Positions 35,896 to 64,000 of a DNA stretch of 64,000 nucleotides are shown here, one piece after another. The stretch comes from Planctomycetota bacterium (GTDB taxonomy: Bacteria > Planctomycetota > JACQVV01 > JASMLP01). The notes under the pieces are model-generated. The model worked only from the letters and a program-made list of their open reading frames with translations. It had not been told where the DNA came from and ran no database searches. Both the position numbers and the translations under genes were made by a program. Location: positions 11,862-75,861 of the forward strand of contig JASMLP010000135.1 in NCBI GenBank assembly GCA_030748635.1, in the 5' to 3' direction. The stretch's first letter is position 1. The number at the start of each line of letters is the position of its first letter.

Positions 35896-38085
35896 TCAAC
35901 GCCCCGAAGGCTGGGGCTCTTTGAGAGTTTTATATTCGGGAATCGACTCCGGGTCGACCTGACTTCGCTTCAGTAATTCAGATATTGCTTTCTGCAGCAC
36001 GGTATCTTCAAGGTAGTCCGCCAGAGGCTTCTGACCCACTTCATCGGCCACCCGCTGCCGAACTCGACTCCTGAGCCATTGCCGAACTGTGTTTCGAGTG
36101 GCGTGAGTCTGGACCGATTCGTACCACTCGTCAAATCCCGGATATCGACCGGGGTCTTTCCCATCATTTTCCGCCAGTTGGCGGAACTGATCCTGGTGCG
36201 TTTCATAGTTGGATTTGAGGTATTTCTGAAATGCCTTCTGCTCGATCAACCGCTGCAAATATTCAGCATTCCAGGGACTCGACTCCTCCTCCTGGACTTC
36301 GAAATCGGGCTGAACTCCTCCTCGGTCCTTCTCCCGACCCGCATCATCGTACGTTCGATTCACACAGGTACCGTCCGGCAAAAAATATCTCGCGATCGTC
36401 ATCCTCAAACGGGCTTTGGGTCGCGACTTCAAAGGGAAAAGATGCTGTACAGTTCCCTTACCAAAAGATCGCCGCCCAACGAGAAAAGCGCGGCCGTGAT
36501 GATGCAACGCTCCGGCAACGATTTCAGAAGCGCTTGCGGTTCCCTCATCCAGCAAAATCACAACCGGAAATTCACCGTGAGTTTCTGGTGTCTTCGTCTT
36601 GTAGTCCTCACGAATACCGTAGGTTTTCGATCTTCCCTGGCTATATGCCACCAGCTTCCCCGCTGGCAGAAACAGATCTGAAACTTCGATCGCCTCACGC
36701 AAAAGACCTCCGCCATTTCCGCGCAGGTCAAAGACCAGAGCGGTCATCCCCTCTTTTTCCAACGCCTGGATAGCCGCCTTCAGTTCGTCGCTCGCTTTTT
36801 CTCCGAACTGAGTCATTTCTACGTAACCGATCCCACCTGGCAATAAGCGAGAATGAACACTCTGGACCTGAATGCGTCTCCGCACGACCTCGATATCTCT
36901 CGGTTTGACCCACCCGTCGCGCGCAACGGTTAACTGAACACTCGTCCCAGGCTTTCCTTTCACCCTCTTGACGATTTCCGTCATCCCTTTTCCAAAAGTG
37001 GACCACCCCTCAACCTTGATAATCCGGTCACCGGTCCGAATACCGGCCTCATAAGCTGGACCGGAGTAGATCGGACTGATCACGGTAAACCAAGTTCCAC
37101 GCATCCCCACATAGACCCCTATGCCCGCATATTCCCCCCCCAATCGCTCGAGAAACTCTCGCCATTCCGTGGGGGTCCAGTAAGAGCTGTGAGGATCCAG
37201 GGAACTGGCCATCCCCTTGGTCGCAGCAACCACGAGATCATCTACCGATTTTCGATCTCCGAGATCATGGTGCTCACGAATCATGCGCGATACTTCGTCC
37301 AGTATCGCCTCCTTATCGTCTGGACTCGCCTGATCCCCTTTCTTGTCCTTTTTCGGACGAGCCACTCCTGAGAAAAGAATTTCCTCATATTTTTTGATCA
37401 TAGCCTCCCTTGCCAGGTAACTACCGGCAAGACGTCCACGTGAGGTCGGCTCTTTTTGCAAACGGACGAGAATGGGACGAGCCGCCTCGATATTGTCTAT
37501 CTCAGCCAAGGCCAGAGCCGCCTCGTGCTGAAGACGTACGTCCTCACTATCCAACATCTTCTTGAGTACTCGACTTCCTTCAACATTATGGGCCGCTTTC
37601 CAGAGACTTTTTGCCAATCGAATCTTGATCGTGGGATCAAAGGTCGATCGGAGCAGATTGAGGATGTCCTGTTCGATCGACTGATCTCCCTCGATCCCCA
37701 ACAAATCTGCAGCATAACCGCGGACCTCGAGATCTTTTCCGTTTTCTGCCAGCTCCAGAAATATCGTAATTCCCTCTTCAGGCTGTCCCAGACGGCACAA
37801 AGCCTTTGCACCAGCAAGTCGAGCAGATTCCCGCGCTCCCCGCATCTCCCGACGTATGTACGGCACAGCGTCGGGACCAAGAGACTCCAATCGAAGGACC
37901 TCATTCCAGAGATCGACCTTGTCTCCTGCCAGTCGCTTAAAGGAACGGACGACTCTTCGCTCCAAGCGATCCGCTACCGGAGCCTCCGGCGCCTCCTGCG
38001 CCCGAATATCAGGCACCGGCATCCAAACCAGAACCACAAGGCCAAATATCGCTGACCAGAACAGGCGTGAAACAGGCTGAGCCAT
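35896..38085 (-). CDS. S41-family C-terminal processing peptidase with N-terminal HEAT-repeat array
   Basis: A PDZ domain precedes the S41 catalytic motifs (FDLRGNGGG, GTASASEIVAGAL, GKGTVQ). The N-terminal ~300 aa consist of HEAT/PBS-lyase-like repeats. I place the start at the internal Met (MAQPVSRLFWSAIFGLVVL, signal peptide) at 38085 rather than at the ORF start at 38232. Confidence 0.85.
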   Translation of the reverse strand: MAQPVSRLFWSAIFGLVVLVWMPVPDIRAQEAPEAPVADRLERRVVRSFKRLAGDKVDLWNEVLRLESLGPDAVPYIRREMRGARESARLAGAKALCRLGQPEEGITIFLELAENGKDLEVRGYAADLLGIEGDQSIEQDILNLLRSTFDPTIKIRLAKSLWKAAHNVEGSRVLKKMLDSEDVRLQHEAALALAEIDNIEAARPILVRLQKEPTSRGRLAGSYLAREAMIKKYEEILFSGVARPKKDKKGDQASPDDKEAILDEVSRMIREHHDLGDRKSVDDLVVAATKGMASSLDPHSSYWTPTEWREFLERLGGEYAGIGVYVGMRGTWFTVISPIYSGPAYEAGIRTGDRIIKVEGWSTFGKGMTEIVKRVKGKPGTSVQLTVARDGWVKPRDIEVVRRRIQVQSVHSRLLPGGIGYVEMTQFGEKASDELKAAIQALEKEGMTALVFDLRGNGGGLLREAIEVSDLFLPAGKLVAYSQGRSKTYGIREDYKTKTPETHGEFPVVILLDEGTASASEIVAGALHHHGRAFLVGRRSFGKGTVQHLFPLKSRPKARLRMTIARYFLPDGTCVNRTYDDAGREKDRGGVQPDFEVQEEESSPWNAEYLQRLIEQKAFQKYLKSNYETHQDQFRQLAENDGKDPGRYPGFDEWYESVQTHATRNTVRQWLRSRVRQRVADEVGQKPLADYLEDTVLQKAISELLKRSQVDPESIPEYKTLKEPQPSGR

Positions 38086-38261
38086 TGTGCTTTCCCTCAA
38101 TGGGTTGATGCAGACCGATACCGATCTGAGAAGAGTGAAATCAAAGTATACATTCGCCACACTAACGGAGGCAACGCCGGTTGAAGAGAAGAGCTGTTTG
38201 ACCCGCATAAAAGTCGATTCTACAATGCCCATCTTCTATCCATGATAGGCTCTTCCACTTT

Positions 38262-40757
38262 ATGAGTACTTTCCGCCCAGAAAGATACCGAAAAACTTGT
38301 ACCCCGTGGGTTTGGGTAATCATATTTCTCGTTTCCTGTAAGCAAGTTTCGGAACCGCGCCCCCTTCCGCCCTCTCCCGCCTCTAGCCAAACGAACATTC
38401 CAGTCGAAGGAGATCGAAACGACTCGTTCGAATTCAGAGCCCCTCCCCAGGAAAATCCCAATCAACTCTTGGAGCATGCTCGATTTGAGACAGCTCGCAC
38501 GCTAGGGTTAACACCCACGAATGCTGATGACATTCTACTACTCGAAACCTCAGAGCACTCCGGCAACAACCCTCCTCATGTTGTCCAAGAACAAATACGT
38601 ACCGGCCAACGAATACACGTTGTCAACCTACCGAAAAGCGAATTTCTCGCGCCAGGTTCTTCACCAGAAAACACCTACGTAAAGGCCTGGACCACCGGCC
38701 TTCTCGCCACTCGACTTGGCAACCGCAAACAGGACCTTCCTCTGTGGTTTATTCATGGCGCGCCACTCTATGCTGCCGACCAAGCCTCCATCGTGTTTGC
38801 TCAAACATTTGCCCGGGTCTTCGAAGGGAGCCCCCCTCCCTCGTTGAGCGCGAAGGACCCCATCAGCGCTTCGCGATCAGGAGCGATGGCGTTTGACCGT
38901 ATTCGCTCTTCTCACGGACCGAGCCGACTCAAACAATGGTTTACAAGCATTGTAGACGGCGGAATGACTTTTTCTTGTGCAACCAATCTCTATCTGAGAG
39001 AAGACCTCCAAACCCTTGAAACAGGCTATCGAAAACATGTTTGGGCCTACCTGAATTCGATGGGCGCCGGGCACATCGATCTACTGCAAACGGCTCGGTG
39101 CCTTCGAAAGCTGAACCAAAGCGAGAAGGCTCTCCAACTACTCGAGAATCCTCTGAGCCTCAGCCTACGTAGTCTGACCGAAACCTTTGTACATCCTCCT
39201 CTATTTTCCAATTTTCTACGCCTCGAAATCAGCCTTTGTCATTTCGAGTTAGGGAACCTGCAAACGGCTAAAATACAATTTGAAAAACTTCTCCAAGATC
39301 ACGATCCGACTTTCCCTTACTCGGCTCTCATCCGATTGCACCTGGCCCAAATCGAACGTACGCAGAAACACCCCATTCAAGCAATGCACCAATGCCTTCT
39401 CCTCCTCGAAGAAAATCCTCAGAGCCCCCACTACGCCGAAGCGACTCTTCTTCTGGCCAGAATCTATCGTGAACTCGGTCAGCATCAGAAATCGATTCGG
39501 CTTCTCCAGCAAATGCGAGAGGAGCATCCAGAACAGTTCGATTCTAGCGCGAATCTCCTGGAGGCCAAGATTCACATGGACCTGGGAGAATTTGCGGAAT
39601 CGAAGCGTATTCTGAATTCTTGGTCCCAAGAATCTCCACCCGACACTCTGAGCGAGATGAAAAATTGCGCTCGCGAAATCGACTCCCAACTAGAATCTCC
39701 GCTATCAAGAATCCGAACGGAACAAGTCCTTCGATGGATAGAAGATCTGGATTCCGAACATCACGCTGAAATTTCAGCCCGATTCCTACGAATTGGTCCT
39801 CCCATTGCGCCGATTCTTCGAGGACAGTTCCGCCGTCTTGACTCCGATCGAATCCGGCAACGAATTCTGAAAGTTCTCTACCGCTTAGACGATCCATCTA
39901 CGGAACAGTTGGCCCTTGAGGGGCTACGAAGCAATCAGCCACGACTCCTTCGAGAATCGATTAAGATCCTGATTTTTAAAGGGATGAAACCCAACATCTT
40001 ACTTCGACAGATACGAACCCTTGCCCGACAATCCACATCTTCTGAAATCGAACAGTGGACCCAGGAACTGGATCAAATCCTGGTGGGAACCTCTCCCGAG
40101 ATACGACGGAAACTCCCGAATCTATTGGCCTTGATTCATAGCAAAAATCCGACCAACCGCATGGAAGCGATTCGGATCCTCATTCAATACGATCACCCCG
40201 ACATCATCCCGCCCCTGGCCCATCTTCTGGGCGATTTCGACCCGGAAGTCCGCAATATGACCCTGATCGCCCTGGAACTCCATTGCGACCGAAGAGCTAC
40301 CGAAGCCCTGGTCAAATCCCTCTCTGATCCTCACCCTAGAAGACGCGCGCAATCCGCGAGGCTTCTGGGCCAATTAGCGACCCCTTCCATCTTGCCCTCC
40401 CTGACCCCCTTGACCCAAGACCCGGCATTTATTGTTCGTCGCGCGGCCCTGGAGTCTATTGCAAGAATCGACCTCCCGGAAGTTCGAGAAATCCTCATTC
40501 ACCATCTCTGTTTACCGAACTCCTCGATTCACCCCACTTGCACCTGGGGACTGCTTTCTCTTCCCAAAGACTCCACGATTGCCTCCATCTGCGGTACTCT
40601 CTTGAAGGACCAATTGCTTCCCACCGCTGAAGTTCGCCTCATTCGCTTACTCGAAACACTGATCGACCGCCCAATCCAATGGGATATTGAGTGGCCACAA
40701 GAAACCAAACAATCCCTCATCCGCAAACTACTAGACTGGTGGAAAACATCAAGATGA
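38262..40757 (+). CDS. Lipoprotein with TPR repeats and C-terminal HEAT (PBS-lyase-type) repeats
   Basis: 831 aa. A signal peptide with a lipobox-like LVSC is followed by TPR-like helices. The C-terminal half carries HEAT repeats (LLGDFDPEVRNMTLIALEL...DPHPRRRAQSARLLGQL...DPAFIVRRAALESIARI). The stop overlaps the next start as ATGA. Confidence 0.7.
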   Translation: MSTFRPERYRKTCTPWVWVIIFLVSCKQVSEPRPLPPSPASSQTNIPVEGDRNDSFEFRAPPQENPNQLLEHARFETARTLGLTPTNADDILLLETSEHSGNNPPHVVQEQIRTGQRIHVVNLPKSEFLAPGSSPENTYVKAWTTGLLATRLGNRKQDLPLWFIHGAPLYAADQASIVFAQTFARVFEGSPPPSLSAKDPISASRSGAMAFDRIRSSHGPSRLKQWFTSIVDGGMTFSCATNLYLREDLQTLETGYRKHVWAYLNSMGAGHIDLLQTARCLRKLNQSEKALQLLENPLSLSLRSLTETFVHPPLFSNFLRLEISLCHFELGNLQTAKIQFEKLLQDHDPTFPYSALIRLHLAQIERTQKHPIQAMHQCLLLLEENPQSPHYAEATLLLARIYRELGQHQKSIRLLQQMREEHPEQFDSSANLLEAKIHMDLGEFAESKRILNSWSQESPPDTLSEMKNCAREIDSQLESPLSRIRTEQVLRWIEDLDSEHHAEISARFLRIGPPIAPILRGQFRRLDSDRIRQRILKVLYRLDDPSTEQLALEGLRSNQPRLLRESIKILIFKGMKPNILLRQIRTLARQSTSSEIEQWTQELDQILVGTSPEIRRKLPNLLALIHSKNPTNRMEAIRILIQYDHPDIIPPLAHLLGDFDPEVRNMTLIALELHCDRRATEALVKSLSDPHPRRRAQSARLLGQLATPSILPSLTPLTQDPAFIVRRAALESIARIDLPEVREILIHHLCLPNSSIHPTCTWGLLSLPKDSTIASICGTLLKDQLLPTAEVRLIRLLETLIDRPIQWDIEWPQETKQSLIRKLLDWWKTSR

Positions 40758-52733: not shown

Positions 52734-54638
52734 TCAAGTCCAGGTTTCCCACTCCTGATACAGTTCAGCAAGGTCTGTTTCCAGTTCAGATAGTCGAGTA
52801 GTCAATTCCATCAACTGTTCATGATCGGAATAGACATCCTCCTCTTCCATCTGAGCCTGGATCTCTGCCATTTCTTCTTCGTGCTCGATGATCAACCGTT
52901 CAAGCGTTTCGTAGTTATAACGCCGTTTCCGAACCGGCTCTGAAGGCTTTCTGGCCACTCTATTCTGTGGCGATTCCGAGTCGAAAGTGCCGGAACCCTT
53001 CGCCAGGTTTCTTGCCTCGGGAAGCCCTTGCCCATTCTCCCTCCGAGTTCCCCCCCATTTCCCCTCGATCTCTCGAACCGTCCCATCCGGCAAAATCTCT
53101 ACGACCCGATCGACGACTCGACTCAGAAGCCATCGATCGTGCGTTACGAGAATGGCTGCCCCAGGATAATCGGACAGATGAGTTTCGAGCGCTTCCCGCC
53201 CAGGAATATCCAGGTGGTTGGTCGGCTCATCGAAGAAGAGCAAATTGGCGCTCGACAGGAGAAGGCGAGCCAATGCGAGCCGACTACGCTCTCCACCAGA
53301 AAGGTTGTCTACCGACGCAAAAACCTCTTCTCCCCGAAATCCGAACCGAGCCAGATAGCTCCGAGCCGTTCCGGGAGTCCACTCTGACCGAGCAGAGAGA
53401 ATCTCTTCAATCACTTCGCTGTGACCCGCGAGATTCCCCGATTCCTGGTGATACACCGCCAACCGAACTGTCCCGCCCAGATGCACCTCACCCTCATCGG
53501 GTTCCAGTTCCTTGGCAAGAATCCGCAACAAAGTGCTCTTACCCGAACCGTTAGGACCGATCAAACCGACGACATCTCCGGCCCTGACAGTCAGATGAAC
53601 CCCACGCAATAGAGGTTTTTCTCCAAATTGCTTGCAGATTCCCCGGGCATCGATCACCCGATTCCCCAGACGTGGCACATTGGTAAAGTCCATGACCAGT
53701 GAACGTTCATCCTGGGTATAGATCGGCAATTCTTCAGCCTCCGAGTCGAGACGCTGAAGTTTTTTCTGCCGACTCCTCGCCTGGGAAACGTTCTGACCGG
53801 CAATATTTTTGCGAACAAAATCTACCTGCCGAGCGCGTTCTTCCTCGAGGCGTTCCTTTTGGCGTTTTGCATTCTCGATACGTTCCGCTCGTTGTCTCAA
53901 AAATTCTTGATACCCGCCACGATACGAGAATGCGCTTCCTCCCCGTTCCAGATGAACAATCCGATCGACAACCCGATCCAGGAAAGTGCGATCGTGGCTC
54001 ACAACGATCAACGCTCCTCCCCTCTGTTTCAGAACTTTTTCCAGCCAATCGATCCTTTCCAGATCCAGGTGATTGGTCGGCTCATCCAGCAACCAGAGGT
54101 CGGCGGGAGTCAACAATGTTCGCGCCAGAGCCAATCGAACTTTTTCTCCTCCAGAAAGAGATTTTACTGATCGCCCCCTCATTTCACGAGAAAAGCCGAG
54201 GCGATCAAGAACTCGTTCCGTTTCCGCCTGATAGGTATATCCCCCGCCATGCTCGAAGCGTAACTGCAGACGTCCATGTCTCTTTTCAAGGTCCGCACGA
54301 TGAGGCTCCTTTTCCATCGCCTCTTCAACCGCAGCCAATTCCTCCCCGACTTGACGCAAACCGACAAAAGCCATCCCGGCGAACTCTTCGACCGACGCAT
54401 TATCGTCCAATTCGATCAATTGCTTATGGAGACGTACGTTCAGATTTTTCGAACGGAAGATCTCTCCCTCATCCGGAGAAGACTCATTCGCAATCACCTC
54501 GAGCAAGGTTGTTTTTCCCGACCCGTTAGAACCGATCAGCCCGAGTCGTTCCCCTTGATTCACCTCGAAACGAACTTTTCGAAGAACGGTTCGTCCCCCT
54601 AGGCGCTTGCTGACATCCTGAACCCGTAGCAGGCTCAT
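52734..54638 (-). CDS. ABC-F family ATPase (tandem ABC domains, no permease; translation/antibiotic-resistance-type)
   Basis: Two Walker A motifs (GSNGSGKTTLL, GPNGSGKSTLL), two LSGGE signatures and an inter-domain coiled-coil linker. Confidence 0.9.
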   Translation of the reverse strand: MSLLRVQDVSKRLGGRTVLRKVRFEVNQGERLGLIGSNGSGKTTLLEVIANESSPDEGEIFRSKNLNVRLHKQLIELDDNASVEEFAGMAFVGLRQVGEELAAVEEAMEKEPHRADLEKRHGRLQLRFEHGGGYTYQAETERVLDRLGFSREMRGRSVKSLSGGEKVRLALARTLLTPADLWLLDEPTNHLDLERIDWLEKVLKQRGGALIVVSHDRTFLDRVVDRIVHLERGGSAFSYRGGYQEFLRQRAERIENAKRQKERLEEERARQVDFVRKNIAGQNVSQARSRQKKLQRLDSEAEELPIYTQDERSLVMDFTNVPRLGNRVIDARGICKQFGEKPLLRGVHLTVRAGDVVGLIGPNGSGKSTLLRILAKELEPDEGEVHLGGTVRLAVYHQESGNLAGHSEVIEEILSARSEWTPGTARSYLARFGFRGEEVFASVDNLSGGERSRLALARLLLSSANLLFFDEPTNHLDIPGREALETHLSDYPGAAILVTHDRWLLSRVVDRVVEILPDGTVREIEGKWGGTRRENGQGLPEARNLAKGSGTFDSESPQNRVARKPSEPVRKRRYNYETLERLIIEHEEEMAEIQAQMEEEDVYSDHEQLMELTTRLSELETDLAELYQEWETWT

Positions 54639-54662
54639 TTCGGCCCTCTTCTCGGACCGAGA

Positions 54663-55823
54663 TCAGGCCTTTCCGAACACCTCACGAAAGGCTCCTCGCA
54701 GATCATTGATCAGATCCTCGACATTCTCAATCCCCACCGACAGTCGAATCAGACCATCTGTCAACCCGGCACGAACCCTTTCCTCTCTCGGAACCGCCGC
54801 GTGAGTCATTGTCGCCGGATGCTCGATCAAGCTCTCCACCCCACCCAGGCTCTCCGCCAGAGCGAAAAGGCGAGTGGCCATGACAAAAGTTTTTCCGTCC
54901 TCCACCCCCCCACGAAGTTCGAAACTTACCATCCCTCCGCCGGTATTCATCTGTTGACGCGCGATCGGGTGCTGCGGATGGCTTTCCAGAAAAGGATACC
55001 GTACCCAGGCAACCCGATCCTGCGACTCCAAAAACTCGGCGATTGCCAAAGCGTTGACCGCGTGCTTCTCCATCCGCAACGAGAGGGTACGGATCCCGCG
55101 CAGGGTGAGAAACGCATCCAAGGGAGCGGGGACCGCTCCCAGAGTATTCTGATAGAAAGCGAGTTTTTCTCCCAGTTCGGGATCATTCGTTACGACAGCA
55201 CCCCCCACCACATCGCAATGTCCACCCAGATACTTGGTCGTGGAATGCAGAACCAAATCGGCTCCGAAATCCAGTGGACGCTGATTGAACGGAGTAGCAA
55301 AGGTATTATCTACCAGCAGAAGGGCCTTGGCTTCTTTGGCCACCTCGGACACGGCGGCCAGATCGGTAATTTTCAGGACCGGGTTTGACGGAGACTCCAC
55401 CCAAAGAAGACGAGTCTGTTCGGTCAACGCACCCCGAATCGCATCGATGTCCGTAGTGTCTACAAAAGAAAAACGAATTCCCAGGGGCTCGAATGCCGTG
55501 GTGAAAAGACGGTAAGTTCCTCCATAGAGGTCGTCACCGGCGACCACATGGTCTCCTTGCCGCAGAAAGTGAAGAACAGTCGTCGCAGCCGCGCAACCGG
55601 AAGCATAGCTACGACAAGAACTCCCCTTCTCGAGATCTGCCAGAGCTTCTTCGAGCGCCTCTCGCGTGGGGTTCTGAGTACGACTGTATTCGTAACCCCG
55701 ATGACAGCCGGGCTCATCCTGAACGTAGGTCGATGTCTGAAATATCGGAACCTGGATAGCACCCGTTCGCGGATCCGGATGAGCTCCCGCATGAACCGCG
55801 AGAGAATCGAAATGCATACTCAT
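54663..55823 (-). CDS. Cystathionine gamma-lyase/gamma-synthase family PLP enzyme
   Basis: N-terminus AVHAGAHPDPRTGAIQVPIFQTSTY and the PLP-lysine region HSTTKYLGGH. Confidence 0.85.
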   Translation of the reverse strand: MSMHFDSLAVHAGAHPDPRTGAIQVPIFQTSTYVQDEPGCHRGYEYSRTQNPTREALEEALADLEKGSSCRSYASGCAAATTVLHFLRQGDHVVAGDDLYGGTYRLFTTAFEPLGIRFSFVDTTDIDAIRGALTEQTRLLWVESPSNPVLKITDLAAVSEVAKEAKALLLVDNTFATPFNQRPLDFGADLVLHSTTKYLGGHCDVVGGAVVTNDPELGEKLAFYQNTLGAVPAPLDAFLTLRGIRTLSLRMEKHAVNALAIAEFLESQDRVAWVRYPFLESHPQHPIARQQMNTGGGMVSFELRGGVEDGKTFVMATRLFALAESLGGVESLIEHPATMTHAAVPREERVRAGLTDGLIRLSVGIENVEDLINDLRGAFREVFGKA

Positions 55824-57196
55824 CAGCGCACTTTCAGGGATTGAATGAGATCGTATTTGGTGATAATCCCGTTAGTATTCCCCTCCCTCGAGACCAGAAC
55901 AGCTGAATTCCCGCTAGTCAGGAGGTGACTGATCTCCTCGACACTCGTTTCGGAAGAAACGATCGGCAGAGGTTCACCCATCACGGATCCGACTGAAACC
56001 TCTTCGGCTTCTTGTCCAGAAATCAGAAGATCGATGAGCGTATCTTCCTGAATTCGCCCCACGATAGCTTCATTCTCCATCACCGGGATTTGACTCACCT
56101 CGAATTCCTTCATCGTTGCCAACGCCTCCTGGCAATTCGCGTCCGCCGGAATAGAAATCAGAGACTCTGACTCGGCATGGGCTTTGGATGCGAGAATTTC
56201 CTCCGCCCGCAAAGACGACCGGGGCCCGAGGAATTCATTGTCACGCATCCATTCATCATTGAAAACCTTGGAGAGATAACGCTCCCCAGTATCCGGGAGT
56301 AATACGACCAAAACACATTCGTCATCCCGAGACGCCGCGTAAGTCAAGGCCGCGGCCATGGCCGCTCCCCCCGAACCGCCAGTAAAAATCGCTTCCCGTC
56401 GAGCGAGAGCGCGAGCAGTCATGAAACAATCTTTGTCAGGAACGGGGATCACCTCATCGATCACTGAGAAATCGATGGTTTCCGGAATAATGTCCTCACC
56501 GATCCCCTCCACCTTATACGTATGAGCTTCACCCAGTTTGCCTGTACGAAAATAGTCGGTGTACAGCGAACCGATCGGGTCAGCACCTACAATCTTCACC
56601 GCAGGGTTTTGTTCTTTGAGGTAACGACCGATACCGCTGATCGTCCCCCCTGTCCCCAACCCACCCACAACAACATCTACTTTTCCTTCGGTATCCTCCC
56701 AGATCTCGGGCCCTGTGGTCTCGTAGTGAGTCTGTGGATTATCGAGATTGACGTATTGGTTGGGGTAATACGAATTGGGAATCTCCTCGGAAAGACGCTG
56801 AGCGACGGAATAGTAACTCTGCGGATTATCCGGTTCGACTGCGGTGGGACATACGATCACCTCGGCCCCAAACGCCTTGAGAAGATCGATCTTCTCCTGA
56901 CTCATCTTGTCAGGCATCGTAAAAATAGCGCGGTACCCTCGTATGGCAGCGACCATCGCCAAACCGAGCCCCGTATTCCCACTAGTACCTTCGATAATCG
57001 TTCCGCCTGGACTGAGATCTCCACGCTTCTCGGCCTCATCAATCATTTTCACCGCAATGCGGTCCTTGATGCTCCCGCCGGGATTGAAAGATTCGATTTT
57101 GGCGTATATCCGAGGCTTCAGCCCAGAATTCATCGAGGAAAGACAGACCAGTGGTGTCTTTCCTATCAACTCAAGTACATTGTTATATACACGCAT
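55823..57196 (-). CDS. Cystathionine beta-synthase (CysK-fold PLP domain + C-terminal CBS pair)
   Basis: IGKTPLV...KIESFNPGGSIKDRIA, a G-rich loop (GTSGNTGLGLA) and C-terminal CBS domains. It overlaps the downstream lyase gene by 1 nt. Confidence 0.85.
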   Translation of the reverse strand: MRVYNNVLELIGKTPLVCLSSMNSGLKPRIYAKIESFNPGGSIKDRIAVKMIDEAEKRGDLSPGGTIIEGTSGNTGLGLAMVAAIRGYRAIFTMPDKMSQEKIDLLKAFGAEVIVCPTAVEPDNPQSYYSVAQRLSEEIPNSYYPNQYVNLDNPQTHYETTGPEIWEDTEGKVDVVVGGLGTGGTISGIGRYLKEQNPAVKIVGADPIGSLYTDYFRTGKLGEAHTYKVEGIGEDIIPETIDFSVIDEVIPVPDKDCFMTARALARREAIFTGGSGGAAMAAALTYAASRDDECVLVVLLPDTGERYLSKVFNDEWMRDNEFLGPRSSLRAEEILASKAHAESESLISIPADANCQEALATMKEFEVSQIPVMENEAIVGRIQEDTLIDLLISGQEAEEVSVGSVMGEPLPIVSSETSVEEISHLLTSGNSAVLVSREGNTNGIITKYDLIQSLKVR

Positions 57197-57206
57197 AATT
57201 TTTGAT

Positions 57207-59681
57207 TCACTTTCCAGTCAGCCAGTCTCTCCATCGATCCAACGCTTGACCCCTCGCCTCCGGAGAAGCCGCGGGATCAAAACCGTAGGTTTGACCACTC
57301 AGTACGCGAAGAACGAGAACCGCCGAATGACATCGCTTGAGATCTGTACTTTTCAGGAGTTCAATTAAATATTTTCGATCTCGATCAAGATCGAGACGAG
57401 ACGCTTTTTCTTCAACCGCCAACGACTCATCGAAAACAACGCCCTCTACCCTGGCACGTTCTTCGGCGGTTTTCCGAACCCCTTCCAATTCTTTCAGCCA
57501 TTTGAGAATCTCCGAGAAATCTTCTCGATGATTCTCAAATTCTTCTCGGGCAGAGAGCTCATCCAGACGTTCTCGTAAAATCGACTCGAATTCCGGCTTC
57601 ATCTGATGCTTGAGCCAGAGTGACTGTGCATCCCAGAACAACCCCCCATCGGGCCCGGTACCCTGAATCACTTTAGCGAGTAGCGGGAGAGCCTCCTCTA
57701 CTCGCGAAAGCCCTAAAAGAGAACGGGCGAGATCGTATTGATCTTCTGGAGTCACTCCCTCGGAACCAGCCAACCTGGAAGCGAGGACAAAAGCTTCTTG
57801 ATACTGCTTGGCACTCAAACGGACCGACAGTAAATCTCGTTCGATCACAAGTCGTTCCGGTCCTTCCTGCAGCAGAGGAATCAACCGAAGGTAGAGTTCC
57901 ACACACCGGGAAGGATTGACCTTACGAGCCAAATCAGCGGACTCCTTCAATAACGCCGGTTTGTCTTTACAGATCGTACCCAGCCCTTTCCAGGCGGCGT
58001 CGGCCACCGCGGGATCTCCATCACCGAGCGCGCGCGCCAGATCGGGAACGGCTTGTCGATCGCCAATCTTCTCCATCGATTCAGCAGCGCTTCGGCGCAC
58101 CTGGGCATCGACATCTGCCAGCAAACGTTTTCCAAGCGGTTTCACCGCCTTCGCGTGTCCCAGTTTCCCAAGAGCCACCACTGCCGATTGGCGTACACGC
58201 GCAACCTCATCGTCAAAAAGTCCCAGTAACGCCGAAACCGCCTTCTGATCTCCCAACTCCCCGAGTGCATCCGCGGCATACCAGCGAAGCCCCGCATCCT
58301 CATGAGAGAGAATTCCCAGGAGTGCGGTCGTCGCCTCGGGAGATCGACATTTCCCTAGAGCTTCTGCACACGCCTTGAGCACTTCCAGATCGCTGGTCGT
58401 GTGTAATCCAACCACCAGCGAAGAAACAGAAGAGTCCCCACCTAGAATCCCCAGAGTTCGCGCCGACGAGATCCGCAAACGTGGAATCTGGGTTTCATCC
58501 TTGAGAAGAACTCCCACCGACGAAGCGGCCTTGGAGTCCCCCATAGCCGCAAAAGCCGCAACCATCTCGTCCAGCAATTCCGTGTCCTGGGGAGAAAATG
58601 AGGAAAGCCCATTACGATTCCGTCTGGCAAGCGCTTCAGAGAATCGTTTGAGAAGTTGGGTAAGAGACGCGTCATCTTTCAACCGCCCCAGAGCCATCGC
58701 CACCGCGCCCAGAACCAAGGGGTGATTTTCTTGTCCCAGTCGCTTTCGAAGACGCAGCAATCGCTGTTCGACCAGCTTGGGATCTTCCGGAGACTTGGCT
58801 TTCCCGAGCATCGTCGCCGCTTGCCGACGAACCGCCCACAATGGATGTTCAATGGCAACGATCAATTGCTCAAACGTACTTCCATCCAGAAGCGGCAAGG
58901 TAGACTGCGCCACCTTTTCCATGAAAACCCGATTTTCTTCCTGAAGAGATCGAAGGACCGACTCGAGGATTTCCTCTCGCGATCGAGAACCGTTGACCTT
59001 CCACCACTGTTCCCAGGCTTTCGAATCATTACCGAAAGATTGCAATGTAATCCGTCGCAAAGCATCAACCGTCTCGGATTTGAAGTCGCCTCCTTCCGCG
59101 CTCAATATCCTGATCAAAGCGGGTACCGCTTCAATTTTTCGCAAAAACCCCAATGCCCGGATCGAGCGAATACGAAGTGACTTTTGTCGCCCGTCTCCTT
59201 CCACCAGCATGAGAAGACTGCGAGTAACCAGTCCGTTCAATTTGGCCAACTCACGAAGCGACTCATGAGCTGCCGCCCGGATGGTCTCCACAGGATCATC
59301 GAGTCGAGCCAAAACACCCTCGAGAAACCGAATATCCCGAGCCACTTTCAGCACGGAAACCACCACATCTTTTCGTTCGACTTCTTGAGCTAAAACCCGC
59401 AAGAGTTCTTCGACTCCCCGATTCCCTTTCAACTTGGAAAGGGTATGTGCGCCGATCGCTTGCTCGCGAACATCCTTGGAATACAACTTCTTACGAAGTT
59501 CGACAAAAGAATCGAGTTGTTCAGAATCTTCCTGAGCGTGAAGAGGGCATCCCTCTCCGCCCCAGAGAGCCAGAAAAGCGACCAGCCAGCAAATCTTCCA
59601 TCCTCGGAAGAACTGTATCTCAACCACTCTTGTCATGACACCGACAGACCGGCTCCGGAAAAACCCGAACGCATACGCCAA
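57207..59681 (-). CDS. Secreted/membrane-anchored HEAT (PBS-lyase-type) repeat protein
   Basis: 824 aa with an N-terminal hydrophobic segment. Many repeats follow, e.g. AVSALLGLFDDEVARVRQSAVVALGKLGHAKAVKPL and DAQVRRSAAESMEKIGDRQAVPDLARAL. The true start may be the internal Met at about 59636. Confidence 0.7.
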   Translation of the reverse strand: MAYAFGFFRSRSVGVMTRVVEIQFFRGWKICWLVAFLALWGGEGCPLHAQEDSEQLDSFVELRKKLYSKDVREQAIGAHTLSKLKGNRGVEELLRVLAQEVERKDVVVSVLKVARDIRFLEGVLARLDDPVETIRAAAHESLRELAKLNGLVTRSLLMLVEGDGRQKSLRIRSIRALGFLRKIEAVPALIRILSAEGGDFKSETVDALRRITLQSFGNDSKAWEQWWKVNGSRSREEILESVLRSLQEENRVFMEKVAQSTLPLLDGSTFEQLIVAIEHPLWAVRRQAATMLGKAKSPEDPKLVEQRLLRLRKRLGQENHPLVLGAVAMALGRLKDDASLTQLLKRFSEALARRNRNGLSSFSPQDTELLDEMVAAFAAMGDSKAASSVGVLLKDETQIPRLRISSARTLGILGGDSSVSSLVVGLHTTSDLEVLKACAEALGKCRSPEATTALLGILSHEDAGLRWYAADALGELGDQKAVSALLGLFDDEVARVRQSAVVALGKLGHAKAVKPLGKRLLADVDAQVRRSAAESMEKIGDRQAVPDLARALGDGDPAVADAAWKGLGTICKDKPALLKESADLARKVNPSRCVELYLRLIPLLQEGPERLVIERDLLSVRLSAKQYQEAFVLASRLAGSEGVTPEDQYDLARSLLGLSRVEEALPLLAKVIQGTGPDGGLFWDAQSLWLKHQMKPEFESILRERLDELSAREEFENHREDFSEILKWLKELEGVRKTAEERARVEGVVFDESLAVEEKASRLDLDRDRKYLIELLKSTDLKRCHSAVLVLRVLSGQTYGFDPAASPEARGQALDRWRDWLTGK

Positions 59682-59814
59682 ACCTTTAAGAATTAAGGAC
59701 TTGTGCTCCCAGATCAGAAGCCCGAATTGTAGGGAAGTCCGAGGGTAGCGTCAACGGGTCGAAAATCGGTTTCGTATCCTCCCAGGTGCTAAAGTCTCCA
59801 GGAAGGCTTTCCGT

Positions 59815-60177
59815 TCACTTCGAATCGTTCACGGATCCGCTGTAGGTCGGAACAAAAGCCATTCTTGGGGACTGCAGGTCGTGCCCCAGATGAAAACCGA
59901 TCAGAATCGCTGAACTGATCAAAAATGCGATGAGAGCCGCTCGTACGACCCGAAATACGGTCGTACCGAACACCGGACGAGGCGGCCCACCCCACTCGGA
60001 CTCCAAATCGACTTCAGGTGGAAAAGGGATCTCGCGAACAGAGCAAGCTATTTTCTCCATGTCCCGTATCCAGCAACGACATTCCTCGCAGGAGTGGACG
60101 TGATCGATGACCTGAAGCGGGTCGTTTCCAACCCAAGAAACCAGCGTATCCCGAATGACCTCACATCCTTCGCTCAT
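59815..60177 (-). CDS. Putative zinc-finger anti-sigma factor (single-pass membrane)
   Basis: I place the start at MSEGCEV, where the ATG overlaps the sigma-factor stop as ATGA. It carries an HxxxCxxC motif (HVHSCEECRC) and a single TM helix (VVRAALIAFLISSAILIGF). Confidence 0.6.
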   Translation of the reverse strand: MSEGCEVIRDTLVSWVGNDPLQVIDHVHSCEECRCWIRDMEKIACSVREIPFPPEVDLESEWGGPPRPVFGTTVFRVVRAALIAFLISSAILIGFHLGHDLQSPRMAFVPTYSGSVNDSK

Positions 60178-60728
60178 GAATCCTCCTCGCAAAGAATTTT
60201 GCGTAATTTTTCAAGCCCGTACCGCATCCTCGACTTGGCGGTATCCTTACTGGTACCGGTTACCTTTCCTATTTCACGAAACGTCAGCCCTTGGTACAGA
60301 CGCAAAACCACCACCTCCCGCTGCTCATCAGAAATCTGAGTCAAGGCTTTCTCGACCCCCGCGATCTCATCGCGCCTTAGTGCAACATTCGGTGGCGACA
60401 GATCGAGCGGAGCCGTTTCTGGCTGGGGTTCGATTTGATTCGCAATCCCCTGAAACCGTTTCTTGCGTCGCCAATAATCGCGACACACATTGCGCGCAAT
60501 CGTAAAAAACCAGGTGCTGAAATGTGCGCGCCTCCAGTCGAATCGACCGATTCCCCGATAAACACGCAGCAAGACTTCCTGGCCCAGATCCTGAACTTCC
60601 GGACGATTCCCCACCGTTCGGACCAGGTACCCGATCAAAGGAGCGTGAACCCCTTCGGCCAGACGCGTGAATGCACAGGGGTCTCCAGCTACCGCACGCT
60701 GAATTATCTGGTGATCATCAAAAACCAT
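60174..60728 (-). CDS. ECF-subfamily RNA polymerase sigma-70 factor
   Basis: Region 2 (LLRVYRGIGRFD...STWFFTIARNVCRDYWRR) and region 4 (VVVLRLYQGLTFREIGKVTGTSKDTAKSRMRYGLEKLR). Confidence 0.85.
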   Translation of the reverse strand: MVFDDHQIIQRAVAGDPCAFTRLAEGVHAPLIGYLVRTVGNRPEVQDLGQEVLLRVYRGIGRFDWRRAHFSTWFFTIARNVCRDYWRRKKRFQGIANQIEPQPETAPLDLSPPNVALRRDEIAGVEKALTQISDEQREVVVLRLYQGLTFREIGKVTGTSKDTAKSRMRYGLEKLRKILCEEDS

Positions 60729-60784
60729 AGAGGACTGTAGACCTGCACCGCATAGATAAGAACTCGCATCAGAAAATCAAAATC

Positions 60785-60812
60785 CGCACGAGAAGAAGAA
60801 AAGAGCCGTTCC
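60785..60812 (-). promoter_or_regulatory. Possible autoregulated ECF-type promoter upstream of the sigma factor gene
   Basis: The minus strand reads GGAAC, a 17 nt spacer, then CGTG, about 55 nt upstream of the sigma ATG. A 10-bp palindrome ACCTGCAGGT lies nearby. Confidence 0.25.
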
Positions 60813-60910
60813 AAATCGAACTCTTCCATCTCTTATTATACGTAGCCGCAGGCCAAAAGGGTCTACAAAGCCCTCAACAACCTGCAGGTCAATAACTTAT
60901 CTTCTGCCAC

Positions 60911-62623
60911 CTACTTGATCTGAGAGAACAGACCGTCAAGCACCTGAATCATGGTGGCACCTTGCTGCCGCCCGTAGAGAGTCCCCATGGCCTCGTATCC
61001 ACCTTCGTCATATTCCAGCGTATCGGTCACATAGGCCACATGGCCCCCACATAAACCCCAGACCATCGAACGAGCATACCCGTGTGCCGCAGCTCTCTTC
61101 TTGACCTCATTCCCGATCGCGGTGATCGGTTCTCCTGGAATACAGCCGATCAGTACATTATCGATGCGAAGCGCACGCATGGGAAAAGAGAGAGGCACCA
61201 GAGCACTCACATCGGTTTGGGTCTGAAATGGTGCCCCAAACACGGCTCCATAAAGTTGGCAGAGATCGATATTCCAGAGCTTGGCCTCCTGTCGGAATTT
61301 CGGTTGCTGACAGGACAGGAAAAGGGTCGCCTTGGAGAAATTCACCTTACCGTACGCAGGACGCAGATCCACCTGTTGACGGGTTGCTGTCTGAGCACGA
61401 ATCCCGAGCGCGGTATTTCCCAGGGTTTCACCGATCCACTTGGCACCTGCGTATCCTTTTCGAGTGGGACTCACATCCCCCTCGGCCGCATTCAGGTAAA
61501 AACCGACGGCGCCGGGAAGTTTCGCTTCGATGTGACGCTCTAAATACCCGGGGAAATCGGCGGTAATTGCCATGGTCCCCAGGCAAACAGGGTGGAGAGA
61601 ATAGTTGACCACCACAGCTATTGGCTGGCCCGTACGAGCCGAATCCACACGAATCACACCGACACTCGTATCGTGACGCCCGGGATGACCTCGTCGATTT
61701 CGCTGAAGACCCAACTGTCGCCCAAAACCGATCCCGAGCCGCGCATCTTGCATACTTTTATTGGCCTGCTTAATCGCCCGAATAGCCCCCTGAGTGACGA
61801 GGTCGTAGATCTGTTGCTGGAAAAGATCCATCGTGATCATCTGCCAGAGAAAGTTCTTCGAAAGAGTGCCAGGTCCGGAATGACTGTGAGTCGCACAAAC
61901 GAACAGATTCGACTCCGGTATTCCCGTCTCCCCAAGAACACCCCGGGCGATGTCGTGAACCAACGATTCATCCACGGCAACGAGATCGAGCTTAACGATC
62001 GCAATACGATCCTGCCCATCATCCAGAACCAACGCCTTGGCAATCAAGGAATCGTGCACACTCGTCGAAGGTGCCATGAATTGATGGAGATTCCGAGGAT
62101 TGAAATCGGGTGGCCAGAGACGGCGGATTCCCCCACCAAAACCGGCCAGCGGCGTTCCCACCGGCGGTGTCACATCCGAAGTTCCGACTCCCGCTCGCAA
62201 TCGAGTAGCCCCAAGAGTTCGAAAGCGAGACTCGAATGGGGTCTTCATCGGATGGCCGTTCGGATTCCGAACTCCAGACCGCACGTGTACTTTGTATAAC
62301 GCGGAAGGTAACAGCGGGTGGGTAGAAGTAAAAATCGCTCGCGTAGATCCAGAAACGACTTGCCAGGTGCCGGAAACAACACCCACTGGCCCCTCGACCT
62401 CTACATGTGGAGAACGAGCGGTAGAGGAATCGATCGCCTGATCAAAATCGACCTGGACGGTAGTCCCGAGAGTGGAAACAGCCTGAGAACCGTCAGCCGG
62501 AACCACCCGCACCACAGATGGACCGTACTGAGAGTTTGGACCGACCCGCGGACACTGGGCCGCCGAGACCAGAAGTCCGATGCAAATAAATCCGAAGATT
62601 CGGGCAAGATTCGAAGTCATCAT
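60911..62623 (-). CDS. Neutral/alkaline ceramidase-family hydrolase with N-terminal Ig-like (SbsA-type) domain
   Basis: A signal peptide (MMTSNLARIFGFICIGLLVSAAQC) precedes a Big-like segment (VVRVVPADGSQAVSTLGTTVQVDFDQAI). The core reads GVGTSDVTPPVGTPLAGFG...RIAIVKLDLV...FVCATHSHSGPG, resembling the neutral ceramidase N-terminal catalytic domain. Confidence 0.6.
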   Translation of the reverse strand: MMTSNLARIFGFICIGLLVSAAQCPRVGPNSQYGPSVVRVVPADGSQAVSTLGTTVQVDFDQAIDSSTARSPHVEVEGPVGVVSGTWQVVSGSTRAIFTSTHPLLPSALYKVHVRSGVRNPNGHPMKTPFESRFRTLGATRLRAGVGTSDVTPPVGTPLAGFGGGIRRLWPPDFNPRNLHQFMAPSTSVHDSLIAKALVLDDGQDRIAIVKLDLVAVDESLVHDIARGVLGETGIPESNLFVCATHSHSGPGTLSKNFLWQMITMDLFQQQIYDLVTQGAIRAIKQANKSMQDARLGIGFGRQLGLQRNRRGHPGRHDTSVGVIRVDSARTGQPIAVVVNYSLHPVCLGTMAITADFPGYLERHIEAKLPGAVGFYLNAAEGDVSPTRKGYAGAKWIGETLGNTALGIRAQTATRQQVDLRPAYGKVNFSKATLFLSCQQPKFRQEAKLWNIDLCQLYGAVFGAPFQTQTDVSALVPLSFPMRALRIDNVLIGCIPGEPITAIGNEVKKRAAAHGYARSMVWGLCGGHVAYVTDTLEYDEGGYEAMGTLYGRQQGATMIQVLDGLFSQIK

Positions 62624-62905
62624 TCCCCCTGAAACCAAAAGCTGACGCACCGTTTACGTACCGAAAAGAGTGATCGGAGGATCTTTTGTGGCGACCTCGA
62701 CAACAGGCAGATCCCGAGCACCCTGATTTCTCACAAAGGATTAAGCAATTTTCATGCCAATAACTACCTTCCCCCAAGACCATATGTTTCAGTAACATGA
62801 GGCCCGATTGACTCTCTTCACGGGATGCCCCCCGGTAACGTCGTTACGTTTCGTAACCGCAAAGACCGCACTTGATGCTGCGAAACCACGATCTGGAGCG
62901 CCTCG

Positions 62906-64000
62906 ATGCGTGACTCGACAAACCTCACCCCTCCTGAAATCTCGGACCTGATCGCCGCAGGAAAAGTGGAGTCTCTCGTCGAGACCCTCTCCCACTTCCA
63001 CCCGGCTGATCTTGCAGACTTCATGGAGCACCTCGGGGAAGAGGATGCGGCAAACCTCTTTCACGCACTCCCCGAAGACCGTCGAGTTGAAACTTTTGAA
63101 CTTCTGGAAGAAGACCGACAGCTGAACCTCATCGAACATGTCGGATTGACATTCATGGCTCCCGTCATCGACCGGATGAGTCCGGATGACCGAGCCGATC
63201 TGGTCAAAAATCTTCCGCCAAGAACAACCGAACGACTTCTCCCCCTGCTAGCTCAGGCTGAACGTGCCGATGTGAAACGACTACTCGCTTACCCGGAAGA
63301 AACGGCCGGTGCGATCATGTCAACCGGCTACGCAAACATCGGTCCAGACTTATCGGTCGCCGAATCGCTGGAACTGCTGCGTCGCATTGCTCCTCATCGC
63401 GAAACGATCTACTACGTCTACGTCACCGGACCCGAAAGGGAACTCCTCGGATTCGTCAGTCTGCAAGACCTCATACTCGCCGAGCCGACACAGAGCATAT
63501 CCAGCTTGATGAATACGGATGTCATCTCACTTCCTGCCAGCTCCGATCAGGAAGAAGTCGCCAAACATATGGAGAAATACAACTTCCTGGCCCTGCCGAT
63601 CAACGACGAAAGAGGTCGACTCGTCGGCATTGTCACCCATGACGACATCCTCGATGTGGTGGAAGTCGAAGCGACTGAAGATGCCCACCTCATGGGAGCC
63701 GTTGCGCCCTTGGAAAACCCTTATTTCCGCACAAGCTTTCACAGTCTTGCCTGGAAACGCGGAAGCTGGCTCTCTCTTCTCTTTCTGGCGGAGATGTTCA
63801 CCAGTACCGCACTGCATGAATTCGAAGGAACCCTTTCTGGCGCCCTGTCATTGGTTTTCTTCATCCCTCTCATCATCTCTTCGGGCGGCAATTCAGGCAG
63901 CCAATCAGCCACGCTTATCACACGGGGTTTAGCTGTCGGTGATGTCACCCTACAAGATTGGTGGCGAGTCACCCTTCGTGAGCTGGGCATGGGTATTTTC
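62906..64000 (+). CDS. mgtE: Magnesium transporter MgtE (5' partial; runs off window end)
   Basis: My own translation from the ATG at 62906 gives MRDSTNLTPPEISDLIAAGKVESLVETLSHFHPADLADFMEHL... (the MgtE N-domain). This is followed by a CBS pair (...DVISLPASSDQEEVAKHMEKYNFLALPINDERGRLVGIVTHDDILD) and the first TM helices. No stop codon occurs before position 64000. Confidence 0.85.
   Translation, partial: MRDSTNLTPPEISDLIAAGKVESLVETLSHFHPADLADFMEHLGEEDAANLFHALPEDRRVETFELLEEDRQLNLIEHVGLTFMAPVIDRMSPDDRADLVKNLPPRTTERLLPLLAQAERADVKRLLAYPEETAGAIMSTGYANIGPDLSVAESLELLRRIAPHRETIYYVYVTGPERELLGFVSLQDLILAEPTQSISSLMNTDVISLPASSDQEEVAKHMEKYNFLALPINDERGRLVGIVTHDDILDVVEVEATEDAHLMGAVAPLENPYFRTSFHSLAWKRGSWLSLLFLAEMFTSTALHEFEGTLSGALSLVFFIPLIISSGGNSGSQSATLITRGLAVGDVTLQDWWRVTLRELGMGIF

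Follow-up and report, generated by a model that had tools for sequence, protein, structure and literature searches.

Gene content of the locus

We analysed a 64-kb stretch of DNA (the window) from an uncultured marine planctomycete-like bacterium, in which a gene pair for an extracytoplasmic function (ECF) sigma factor and a putative zinc-binding anti-sigma protein lies between the genes for a hydrolase of the neutral-ceramidase fold and a HEAT-repeat protein, all four on the minus strand (Table 1). These identities and this gene order had been given in a preliminary description of the locus and they hold, the open reading frames (ORFs) lying at the coordinates claimed and Pfam assigning the hydrolase, sigma and HEAT families. 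The same description had suggested envelope-stress or lipid-responsive control by the ECF pair; our analysis points instead, with some reserve, to a coincidental juxtaposition.

The hydrolase and sigma genes are separated by 182 nucleotides (nt), and the anti-sigma and HEAT genes by 178 nt. Beyond the HEAT gene the junctions are tight, the gene for cystathionine beta-synthase (CBS) starting 10 nt past the HEAT stop codon and overlapping by 1 nt the gene for a cystathionine gamma-lyase-type enzyme (CGL). Seven consecutive genes, from the hydrolase to ABC-F, share the strand, and mgtE is divergent from the hydrolase. An Rfam scan of positions 54500-64000 gave no match, and the leader of the HEAT gene is no more stably folded than its shuffled counterparts (z = -0.02), giving no evidence of a riboswitch. 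The rest of the window has the gene content of an ordinary chromosome (dnaA, holB, metG, mnmG, an Mla transporter and kinases).

Table 1. Coordinates of genes, domains and candidate regulatory elements in the window.
Feature	Position	Strand	Remarks
Hydrolase, longest ORF	60911-62650	-	GTG start at 62650; 579 residues
Hydrolase, probable start	60911-62620	-	ATG start at 62620; 569 residues; start used by gene callers on identical public contigs
Hydrolase, Big_5 Ig-like domain	~62216-62524	-	domain order: N-terminal signal peptide, Big_5, catalytic domain to the C-terminus
ECF sigma factor	60174-60728	-	184 residues; regions 2 and 4 only
Anti-sigma	59815-60177	-	120 residues; longer ORF to 60192
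HEAT-repeat protein, longest ORF	57207-59681	-	TTG start at 59681; 824 residues
HEAT-repeat protein, start preferred by gene callers on identical public contigs	57207-59636	-	ATG start at 59636; 809 residues
Cystathionine beta-synthase (PALP + CBS domains)	55823-57196	-	Pfam PALP 264 bits, CBS 48.7 bits
Cystathionine gamma-lyase-type enzyme	54663-55823	-	Pfam Cys_Met_Meta_PP 508 bits
Candidate ECF promoter, GGAAC-N17-CGTG	60812-60787	-	58 nt upstream of the sigma ATG
Palindrome ACCTGCAGGT	60880-60889		10 bp; 21 nt after the hydrolase stop codon
Sigma-70-type promoter-like TTGACG-N17-TACAAT	59754-59726	-	upstream of the HEAT gene; 10/12 consensus match

A short hydrolase of the neutral-ceramidase fold

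The hydrolase scores 96.9 bits against PF04734 (Ceramidase_alk; cut-off 32.1), the best stretch covering profile positions 30-260 of 509 with a second stretch also reported, and its Ig-like domain scores 45.8 bits against PF13205 (Big_5). PF17048, the C-terminal ceramidase domain, gave no match at E<=0.01, and the chain stops about 27 residues after Y542, that is, with the catalytic domain. Against the NCBIfam neutral-ceramidase equivalog NF041649 it reaches 54.4 bits, the cut-off being 1200. A phmmer search of the PDB returned neutral ceramidases only (2ZWS, 7e-12; 4WGK, 2e-11). An AlphaFold (AF2) model was built from 60 homologues (pLDDT 92, pTM 0.84), and its top four Foldseek matches in the PDB were to 4WGK, 2ZWS and 2ZXC (E 3-6e-33, TM 0.61-0.62, 18-19% identity), with an alignment confined to roughly half the target (TMt 0.52-0.55). 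In the same search no other fold matched the catalytic domain.

The active site appears complete. Residues H245, H247, R309, H343, S384 (in a GDVSP motif), E497, Y530 and Y542 (569-residue numbering) show no variation, or at least 90% conservation, among the 60 homologues. The seven other than the serine align, in order, with H97, H99, R160, H204, E411, Y448 and Y460 of PaCDase from Pseudomonas aeruginosa, and S384 aligns with its GDVSP serine; H97, H204, E411 and Y448 are reportedly the zinc ligands of PaCDase. Their counterparts among the catalytic residues of human neutral ceramidase include His196, and the other human equivalents in the active site are Arg257, Tyr579, Tyr591 and Ser354 (PMC6952831). 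Residues 3-26 of the hydrolase are hydrophobic and signal-peptide-like by hydropathy, and we therefore infer export. Because of the fold match and the conserved catalytic residues, the protein is, as judged from its sequence, very likely an active zinc amidase of the neutral-ceramidase fold. It is a short form and not a canonical neutral ceramidase, having no C-terminal domain, a Big_5 domain at its N-terminus and a score far below the equivalog cut-off, and it corresponds to the proteins that NCBI names 'neutral/alkaline non-lysosomal ceramidase N-terminal domain-containing protein'.

Membership of the ceramidase family, as first proposed, is thus borne out by the above-threshold PF04734 score, the fold match and the retained catalytic residues, with PF17048 undetected. 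The accompanying view that such hydrolases are uncommon fares less well, since the short form is abundant in environmental metagenomes: a search with the protein gave 260 matches, and at least 550 relatives were confirmed among the 600 pattern-matching stretches listed. Neither a characterised member of the short family nor work on planctomycete sphingolipids was found in the searchable literature. These C-domain-less amidases, which keep the full active site and are widespread among bacteria of soils, sediments and the sea, are without an assigned substrate, and characterising any one of them would show whether environmental bacteria widely degrade ceramides or use the fold on other N-acyl lipids. 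Some short homologues (P0024, P0033 and P0083) are fused to PF03417, the acyl-CoA:6-aminopenicillanic-acid acyltransferase/peptidase C45 family, giving proteins of about 810-880 residues; these fusions hint at amide-bond chemistry on non-ceramide substrates.

The sigma factor and its anti-sigma

The sigma factor matches Sigma70_r2 (PF04542, 64.5 bits), Sigma70_r4 (PF04545, 48.9 bits), Sigma70_r4_2 (PF08281, 37.5 bits) and Sigma70_ECF (PF07638, 26.6 bits), all above their cut-offs, and scores 94 bits against TIGR02937 (cut-off 42.9). It reaches no NCBIfam equivalog, the best being PRK12513 at 137 bits against a required 206. Among solved structures it is most similar to 6IN7 chain B (deposited as 'sigma-H factor'), the unnamed sigma factor 8Z6G and SigW, and the nearest homologue outside its own lineage is only 41% identical. 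On these profile matches the protein is classed as a plain two-domain ECF (group 4) factor.

Its stop codon overlaps the start of the anti-sigma gene in an ATGA at 60174-60177, so that the translational coupling reported in the preliminary description is present in the sequence. The N-terminal, cytoplasmic domain of the 120-residue product carries a potential ligand set of C5 with H26-x3-C30-x2-C33 (60079-60102), which by hydropathy is followed by one transmembrane helix at residues ~73-99 (59881-59961) and an extracytoplasmic tail of ~21 residues. The protein aligns with the N-termini of zf-HC2 anti-sigmas encoded beside related sigmas, H26, C30 and C33 being invariant. It gave no Pfam match, zf-HC2 (PF13490) included, even at E<=10, and the only PDB chain matched at the zinc motif was that of RsiW (5WUQ_C), at a non-significant E of 1.2. 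Motif, topology and translational coupling together make it a sound inference that the ORF encodes a membrane zinc-binding anti-sigma, and the zinc-finger type claimed for it stands on the invariant H26/C30/C33 motif shared with the zf-HC2 anti-sigmas, the Pfam zf-HC2 model itself going unmatched.

The HEAT-repeat protein and the genes downstream of it

The HEAT protein scores 174.6 bits against HEAT_2 over six stretches, and consists of a signal-peptide-like N-terminus, repeats as far as about residue 560 and a helical C-terminal region. A search with the full-length protein returned generic HEAT proteins and no orthologue. The last 250 residues likewise found no orthologue among 1.84e9 representatives, in which only the last ~50 residues recur; coverage of this representative library is imperfect, since the protein's own cluster was not returned although identical proteins exist in JGI/Logan contigs. 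The recurring end (57210-57370) is a portable HEAT-like 'FGYDP..R..W..W' module, and Pfam at E<=10 gave no match over the C-terminal stretch that bears it. The module, 'G..FGYDP......R...i..W..WW', is present in one to several copies in otherwise unrelated proteins and makes up a 63-residue protein alone (the module-bearing proteins being P0361, P0363, P0371, P0374 and P0378). The genome is rich in HEAT proteins, the 64-kb window alone encoding three. The genes for the other two in the window diverge from each other: one, at 35896-38232 (minus strand), encodes an S41 peptidase with a PDZ domain and HEAT repeats, and the other, at 38262-40757 (plus strand), encodes an 831-residue HEAT and TPR protein and is followed by a gene for an outer-membrane efflux (OEP) protein.

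The CBS and CGL genes are probably co-transcribed with the HEAT gene because of the 10-nt gap and the 1-nt overlap that join them. A CBS gene followed by a CGL-type gene is a widely conserved pair, seen at about a quarter of 80 loci (L009-L088) and in Planctomycetota, Bacteroidota, KSB1, Latescibacterota and other phyla. At several Gemmatimonadota loci an ECF-like sigma gene lies ~6 kb upstream of CBS, and its product is probably unrelated to the sigma of the window (27-35% identity).

Gene neighbourhoods of the four components

We examined whether the ECF pair keeps the company of either neighbour elsewhere. The four-gene arrangement was found only in the source organism and in one relative, represented by marine contigs from TARA and other ENA collections (L089-L093) with ~92% DNA identity and 90-97% protein identity across the locus. 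In the annotated neighbourhoods of hydrolase homologues at 50, 40, 35 and 38% identity, neither a sigma nor a HEAT gene was present (0/4 for each). The flanks of 85 hydrolase-homologue loci (607 kb) held a single ORF matching the ECF profiles, 5.2 kb away on the opposite strand, and a single HEAT match. A broad hidden Markov model built from 120 ECF sequences, which also recovers the window's own sigma, found the same single ECF match in these loci and 17 sigma-like ORFs in ~1.23 Mb of unrelated control loci; if anything, ECF sigmas are depleted near the short ceramidase-fold family. An apparent clustering of neighbours at the 85 loci was rejected, naive ORF calling in high-GC contigs having produced spurious antisense ORFs.

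None of the three neighbourhoods of the nearest sigma homologues places the ECF pair beside a ceramidase or HEAT gene, and a set of HEAT, anti-sigma and hydrolase genes lies beside CBS in 0/80 CBS-anchored GTDB genomes, a few of which have unrelated sigma-like ORFs (27-35% identical) kilobases from CBS. The CBS-CGL pair itself recurs in many genomes with no HEAT, ECF or hydrolase neighbours. With CBS as the synteny anchor, the best GTDB match was 59% identical and nothing around it was syntenic, indicating a lineage without a close genome representative in GTDB.

The lipid-responsive ECF control suggested in the preliminary description is thus contradicted from the hydrolase side, where homologues at 35-50% identity and 80 further loci have no adjacent ECF or HEAT gene. 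Nor does the window offer a sphingolipid context for it: within the 64 kb, no serine palmitoyltransferase or other sphingolipid-synthesis gene is present. A literature search on ECF-HEAT associations gave nothing relevant. Regulation is known for a single bacterial neutral ceramidase, that encoded by P. aeruginosa cerN, where the AraC-type regulator SphR mediates induction by sphingosine (PMC3900636).

Promoter candidates and repeats

A GGAAC-N17-CGTG promoter and a 10-bp palindrome had been proposed upstream of the sigma gene, and both are at the sites claimed; what did not survive comparison with the only available relative is the conservation of the palindrome and of the -35 element. In the window the GGAAC-N15-19-CGTG class has 4 occurrences where 3.06 would be expected, and its relaxed form AAC-N15-18-CGT has 100, or ~0.14 expected per 182-nt intergenic region, so that the candidate is not above chance by sequence alone and only its position is suggestive. 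In the ~92% relative it reads GGAGC-N18-CGTG, with ~7 changes in 26 nt, and sigma region 4 is identical. The palindrome ACCTGCAGGT occurs once in the window (0.01 expected); its site in the relative reads ATCTGTCGAT, with 4/10 bases changed, and is no longer palindromic. Both elements change faster than the locus average and therefore neither shows constraint. We rejected the palindrome as a terminator or operator, as it has no loop and no T-run and is not conserved, and most likely it is a chance sequence. A conserved TATAAT at ~60838-60843 was also rejected as part of a sigma-70 promoter for the sigma gene, there being no acceptable -35 element at 16-18 nt.

No AAC...CGT-type ECF motif is found upstream of the hydrolase or the HEAT gene. 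The HEAT gene is preceded by a different element, the sigma-70-type promoter-like TTGACG-N17-TACAAT, which is identical in all four relative contigs and whose immediate 5' sequence carries a 36-43-nt indel. In the relatives (L089 at ~4030-4110; also L090-L092) there is a tandem duplication of ~36 nt, GTGAACGGAAAGCGATT.TAGA.GCTTTCAGCTAG occurring twice from the end of the anti-sigma gene, and the window at ~59790-59815 holds a single copy of the duplicated unit.

A nested inverted repeat, GGTTACGAAACGTAACGACGTTACC, lies at 62834-62858 in the divergent region between the hydrolase and mgtE genes, ~50 nt before the position at which the longest ORF for mgtE begins (62906, plus strand). It is identical in the ~92% relative and has no Rfam match, the M-box included; it could be an operator or leader element of mgtE or of the hydrolase.

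Interpretation of the locus

Our preferred reading, which we hold to be rather probable while leaving appreciable room for error, is that the ECF pair stands beside the hydrolase and the HEAT protein by coincidence, and that the locus comprises three independent units on one strand and not a lipid-responsive circuit. The first would be a monocistronic gene, divergent from mgtE, for an exported zinc amidase that, given its fold and active-site residues, may cleave the N-acyl amide bond of a lipid-like substrate, presumably outside the cytoplasm. The second would be a self-contained sigma/anti-sigma operon, in which the coupled 120-residue anti-sigma would hold the sigma factor at the membrane through its zinc-binding N-terminal domain. 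Because so little of the anti-sigma lies outside the membrane, the sigma factor is probably freed either through regulated proteolysis or when the zinc site is oxidised or lost, by analogy with RsiW and RslA. The third would be an exported HEAT protein whose gene has a sigma-70-type promoter to itself, from which the CBS and CGL genes are probably transcribed as well. Separate transcription of the three is suggested by the 182- and 178-nt gaps, by the conserved TTGACG-N17-TACAAT and by the absence of an ECF-like motif before the hydrolase and HEAT genes.

Several observations weigh against this reading. The candidate ECF promoter is correctly placed before the sigma gene and its CGTG is kept in the relative. 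No intrinsic terminator is predicted in either ~180-nt gap, so that transcription of the hydrolase gene may run on through the sigma operon and further. The same-strand arrangement is retained in the ~92% relative, which is itself too close to separate selection from inheritance. As no orthologues of the sigma, the anti-sigma or the HEAT protein were found, the neighbourhood comparisons do not refute a linkage of ECF and HEAT genes. The members of an ECF regulon, moreover, often lie scattered, and the sigma could therefore still control either neighbour through an unrecognised motif.

Some of these points would equally fit the model of the preliminary description, in which the pair would serve specifically to control the hydrolase, the HEAT protein or both in response to the envelope or to lipids, with autoregulation from GGAAC-N17-CGTG. 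The adjacency kept in the relative, the exported look of both putative targets, the motif 58 nt before the sigma start and the lack of predicted terminators between the genes would all suit it. We nevertheless judge it unlikely, given that there is no co-occurrence at the 85 hydrolase loci, that neither target gene has an ECF-like motif, that the one motif present is at chance frequency with its -35 AAC altered and its spacer longer in a relative of identical region 4, that the HEAT gene has a conserved sigma-70-type promoter of its own, and that known control of a bacterial neutral ceramidase runs through AraC-type SphR and not through an ECF factor (PMC3900636). The uniform strand, the terminator-free gaps and the tight CBS, CGL and HEAT junctions might also be explained by a single long constitutive operon of seven genes, from the hydrolase to ABC-F, read from the hydrolase/mgtE divergent promoter region and of no specific regulatory meaning. 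That the two ~180-nt gaps are conserved and hold promoter-like elements, that the gene functions are unrelated and that in all other genomes examined these genes lie apart from one another leaves such an operon improbable in our estimation.

The regulons of SigR-RsrA and SigH-RshA include cysteine and thiol genes, and by analogy the window's anti-sigma might sense disulfide stress through its zinc-cysteine site, with sigma-dependent read-through raising HEAT-CBS-CGL expression to supply cysteine by reverse transsulfuration. The C5/H26/C30/C33 arrangement does resemble redox-sensitive zinc-binding anti-sigma (ZAS) sites, the CBS and CGL genes do come immediately downstream in the same orientation, separated from the HEAT gene by 10 nt, and no terminator is predicted. 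Yet the anti-sigma has a membrane anchor that RsrA lacks, many ZAS proteins do not sense redox state, the HEAT operon has no ECF motif and is already served by a conserved sigma-70-type promoter, and the CBS-CGL pair does without such an ECF pair in 80 genomes, some of which have 27-35%-identical sigma-like ORFs kilobases off; we regard a thiol-stress module as distinctly improbable. Still lower stands the idea that the HEAT protein is the missing periplasmic sensor for an anti-sigma with ~21 external residues, a logic comparable to that of CnrX with CnrY or RseB with RseA. It draws on the minimal extracytoplasmic tail, on the HEAT protein being the product of the next gene and having a signal-peptide-like N-terminus, and on the 430-512-residue anti-sigmas paired with related sigmas, which would imply that the window's anti-sigma has lost a large domain. 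With no orthologues from which co-evolution or co-occurrence could be read, with HEAT proteins as frequent as three in 64 kb and with the HEAT gene apparently transcribed separately and coupled to CBS and CGL, we consider it very improbable. A three-part circuit, in which the HEAT protein would sense for the pared-down anti-sigma in the periplasm and the freed sigma factor would drive the amidase to remodel or scavenge N-acyl lipids, is the most far-fetched of these proposals and can be given hardly any credence; if true, it would constitute a new envelope-lipid circuit and the first physiological role for the widespread short ceramidase-fold family.

Coincidental juxtaposition, our preferred reading, has a practical consequence for annotation. 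All components of the locus fall into known families, and their juxtaposition is confined to one lineage and shows no detectable regulatory logic; to annotate the locus as responsive to lipids or sphingolipids would be unwarranted.

Other genes in the window

Two ORFs elsewhere in the window have unusual domain combinations. An 809-residue ORF at 32258-34687 (plus strand) joins a PSP1 C-terminal domain (residues 62-147) to a class I methionyl-tRNA synthetase domain (residues 301-644), and possibly represents a gene fusion, or else a merger of two genes in the simple ORF call. A 1231-residue Ser/Thr protein kinase with a C-terminal PA14 domain is encoded at 7207-10902 (plus strand), followed by a PilZ-domain protein (10818-11819).

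Comparison with known systems

The hydrolase resembles P. aeruginosa CerN/PaCDase (2ZWS/2ZXC) and human ASAH2 (4WGK) in its catalytic fold, its PF04734 match, its aligned active-site residues and its predicted export, but is only 18-19% identical to them and has an N-terminal Big_5 domain in place of their C-terminal domain. Regulation of cerN also differs in kind from that first proposed here, being by the AraC-type SphR and not by an ECF sigma factor (PMC3900636). Closer in form are the short environmental homologues (by their source names from Planctomycetota, Blastocatellia, Caldilineae, Variibacter and others), which are 27-50% identical to the hydrolase and share the same invariant residues. 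They consist of a catalytic domain of 410-500 residues only, a few (P0001-P0003 and P0006) also having Big_5, and none of those examined adjoins an ECF pair or a HEAT protein, unlike the hydrolase of the window.

For the ECF pair the nearest relatives by sigma sequence are the Myxococcota-type modules (P0127, P0131 and P0138), whose sigmas are 38-41% identical and whose genes have the same 4-nt overlap with a zf-HC2-type anti-sigma in which the histidine and the two cysteines align. These modules differ in having sigmas with a C-terminal extension, anti-sigmas of 430-512 residues and Tad-pilus neighbours (TadE/RcpC/T2SSF). We rejected these ~40% sigma homologues as orthologues on account of the extension, the different ECF group and the Tad-pilus neighbourhoods. 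In overall organization the pair can also be compared with SigW-RsiW of Bacillus subtilis and other pairs of an ECF factor with a membrane ZAS protein, with which it shares a two-domain sigma, a single-pass anti-sigma that is co-transcribed with the sigma and coupled to it in translation, and a cytoplasmic HxxxCxxC motif. RsiW has about 208 residues. The window's sigma differs from SigW in its low identity to any characterised ECF factor, and its anti-sigma from RsiW in having 120 residues, of which only ~21 are external.

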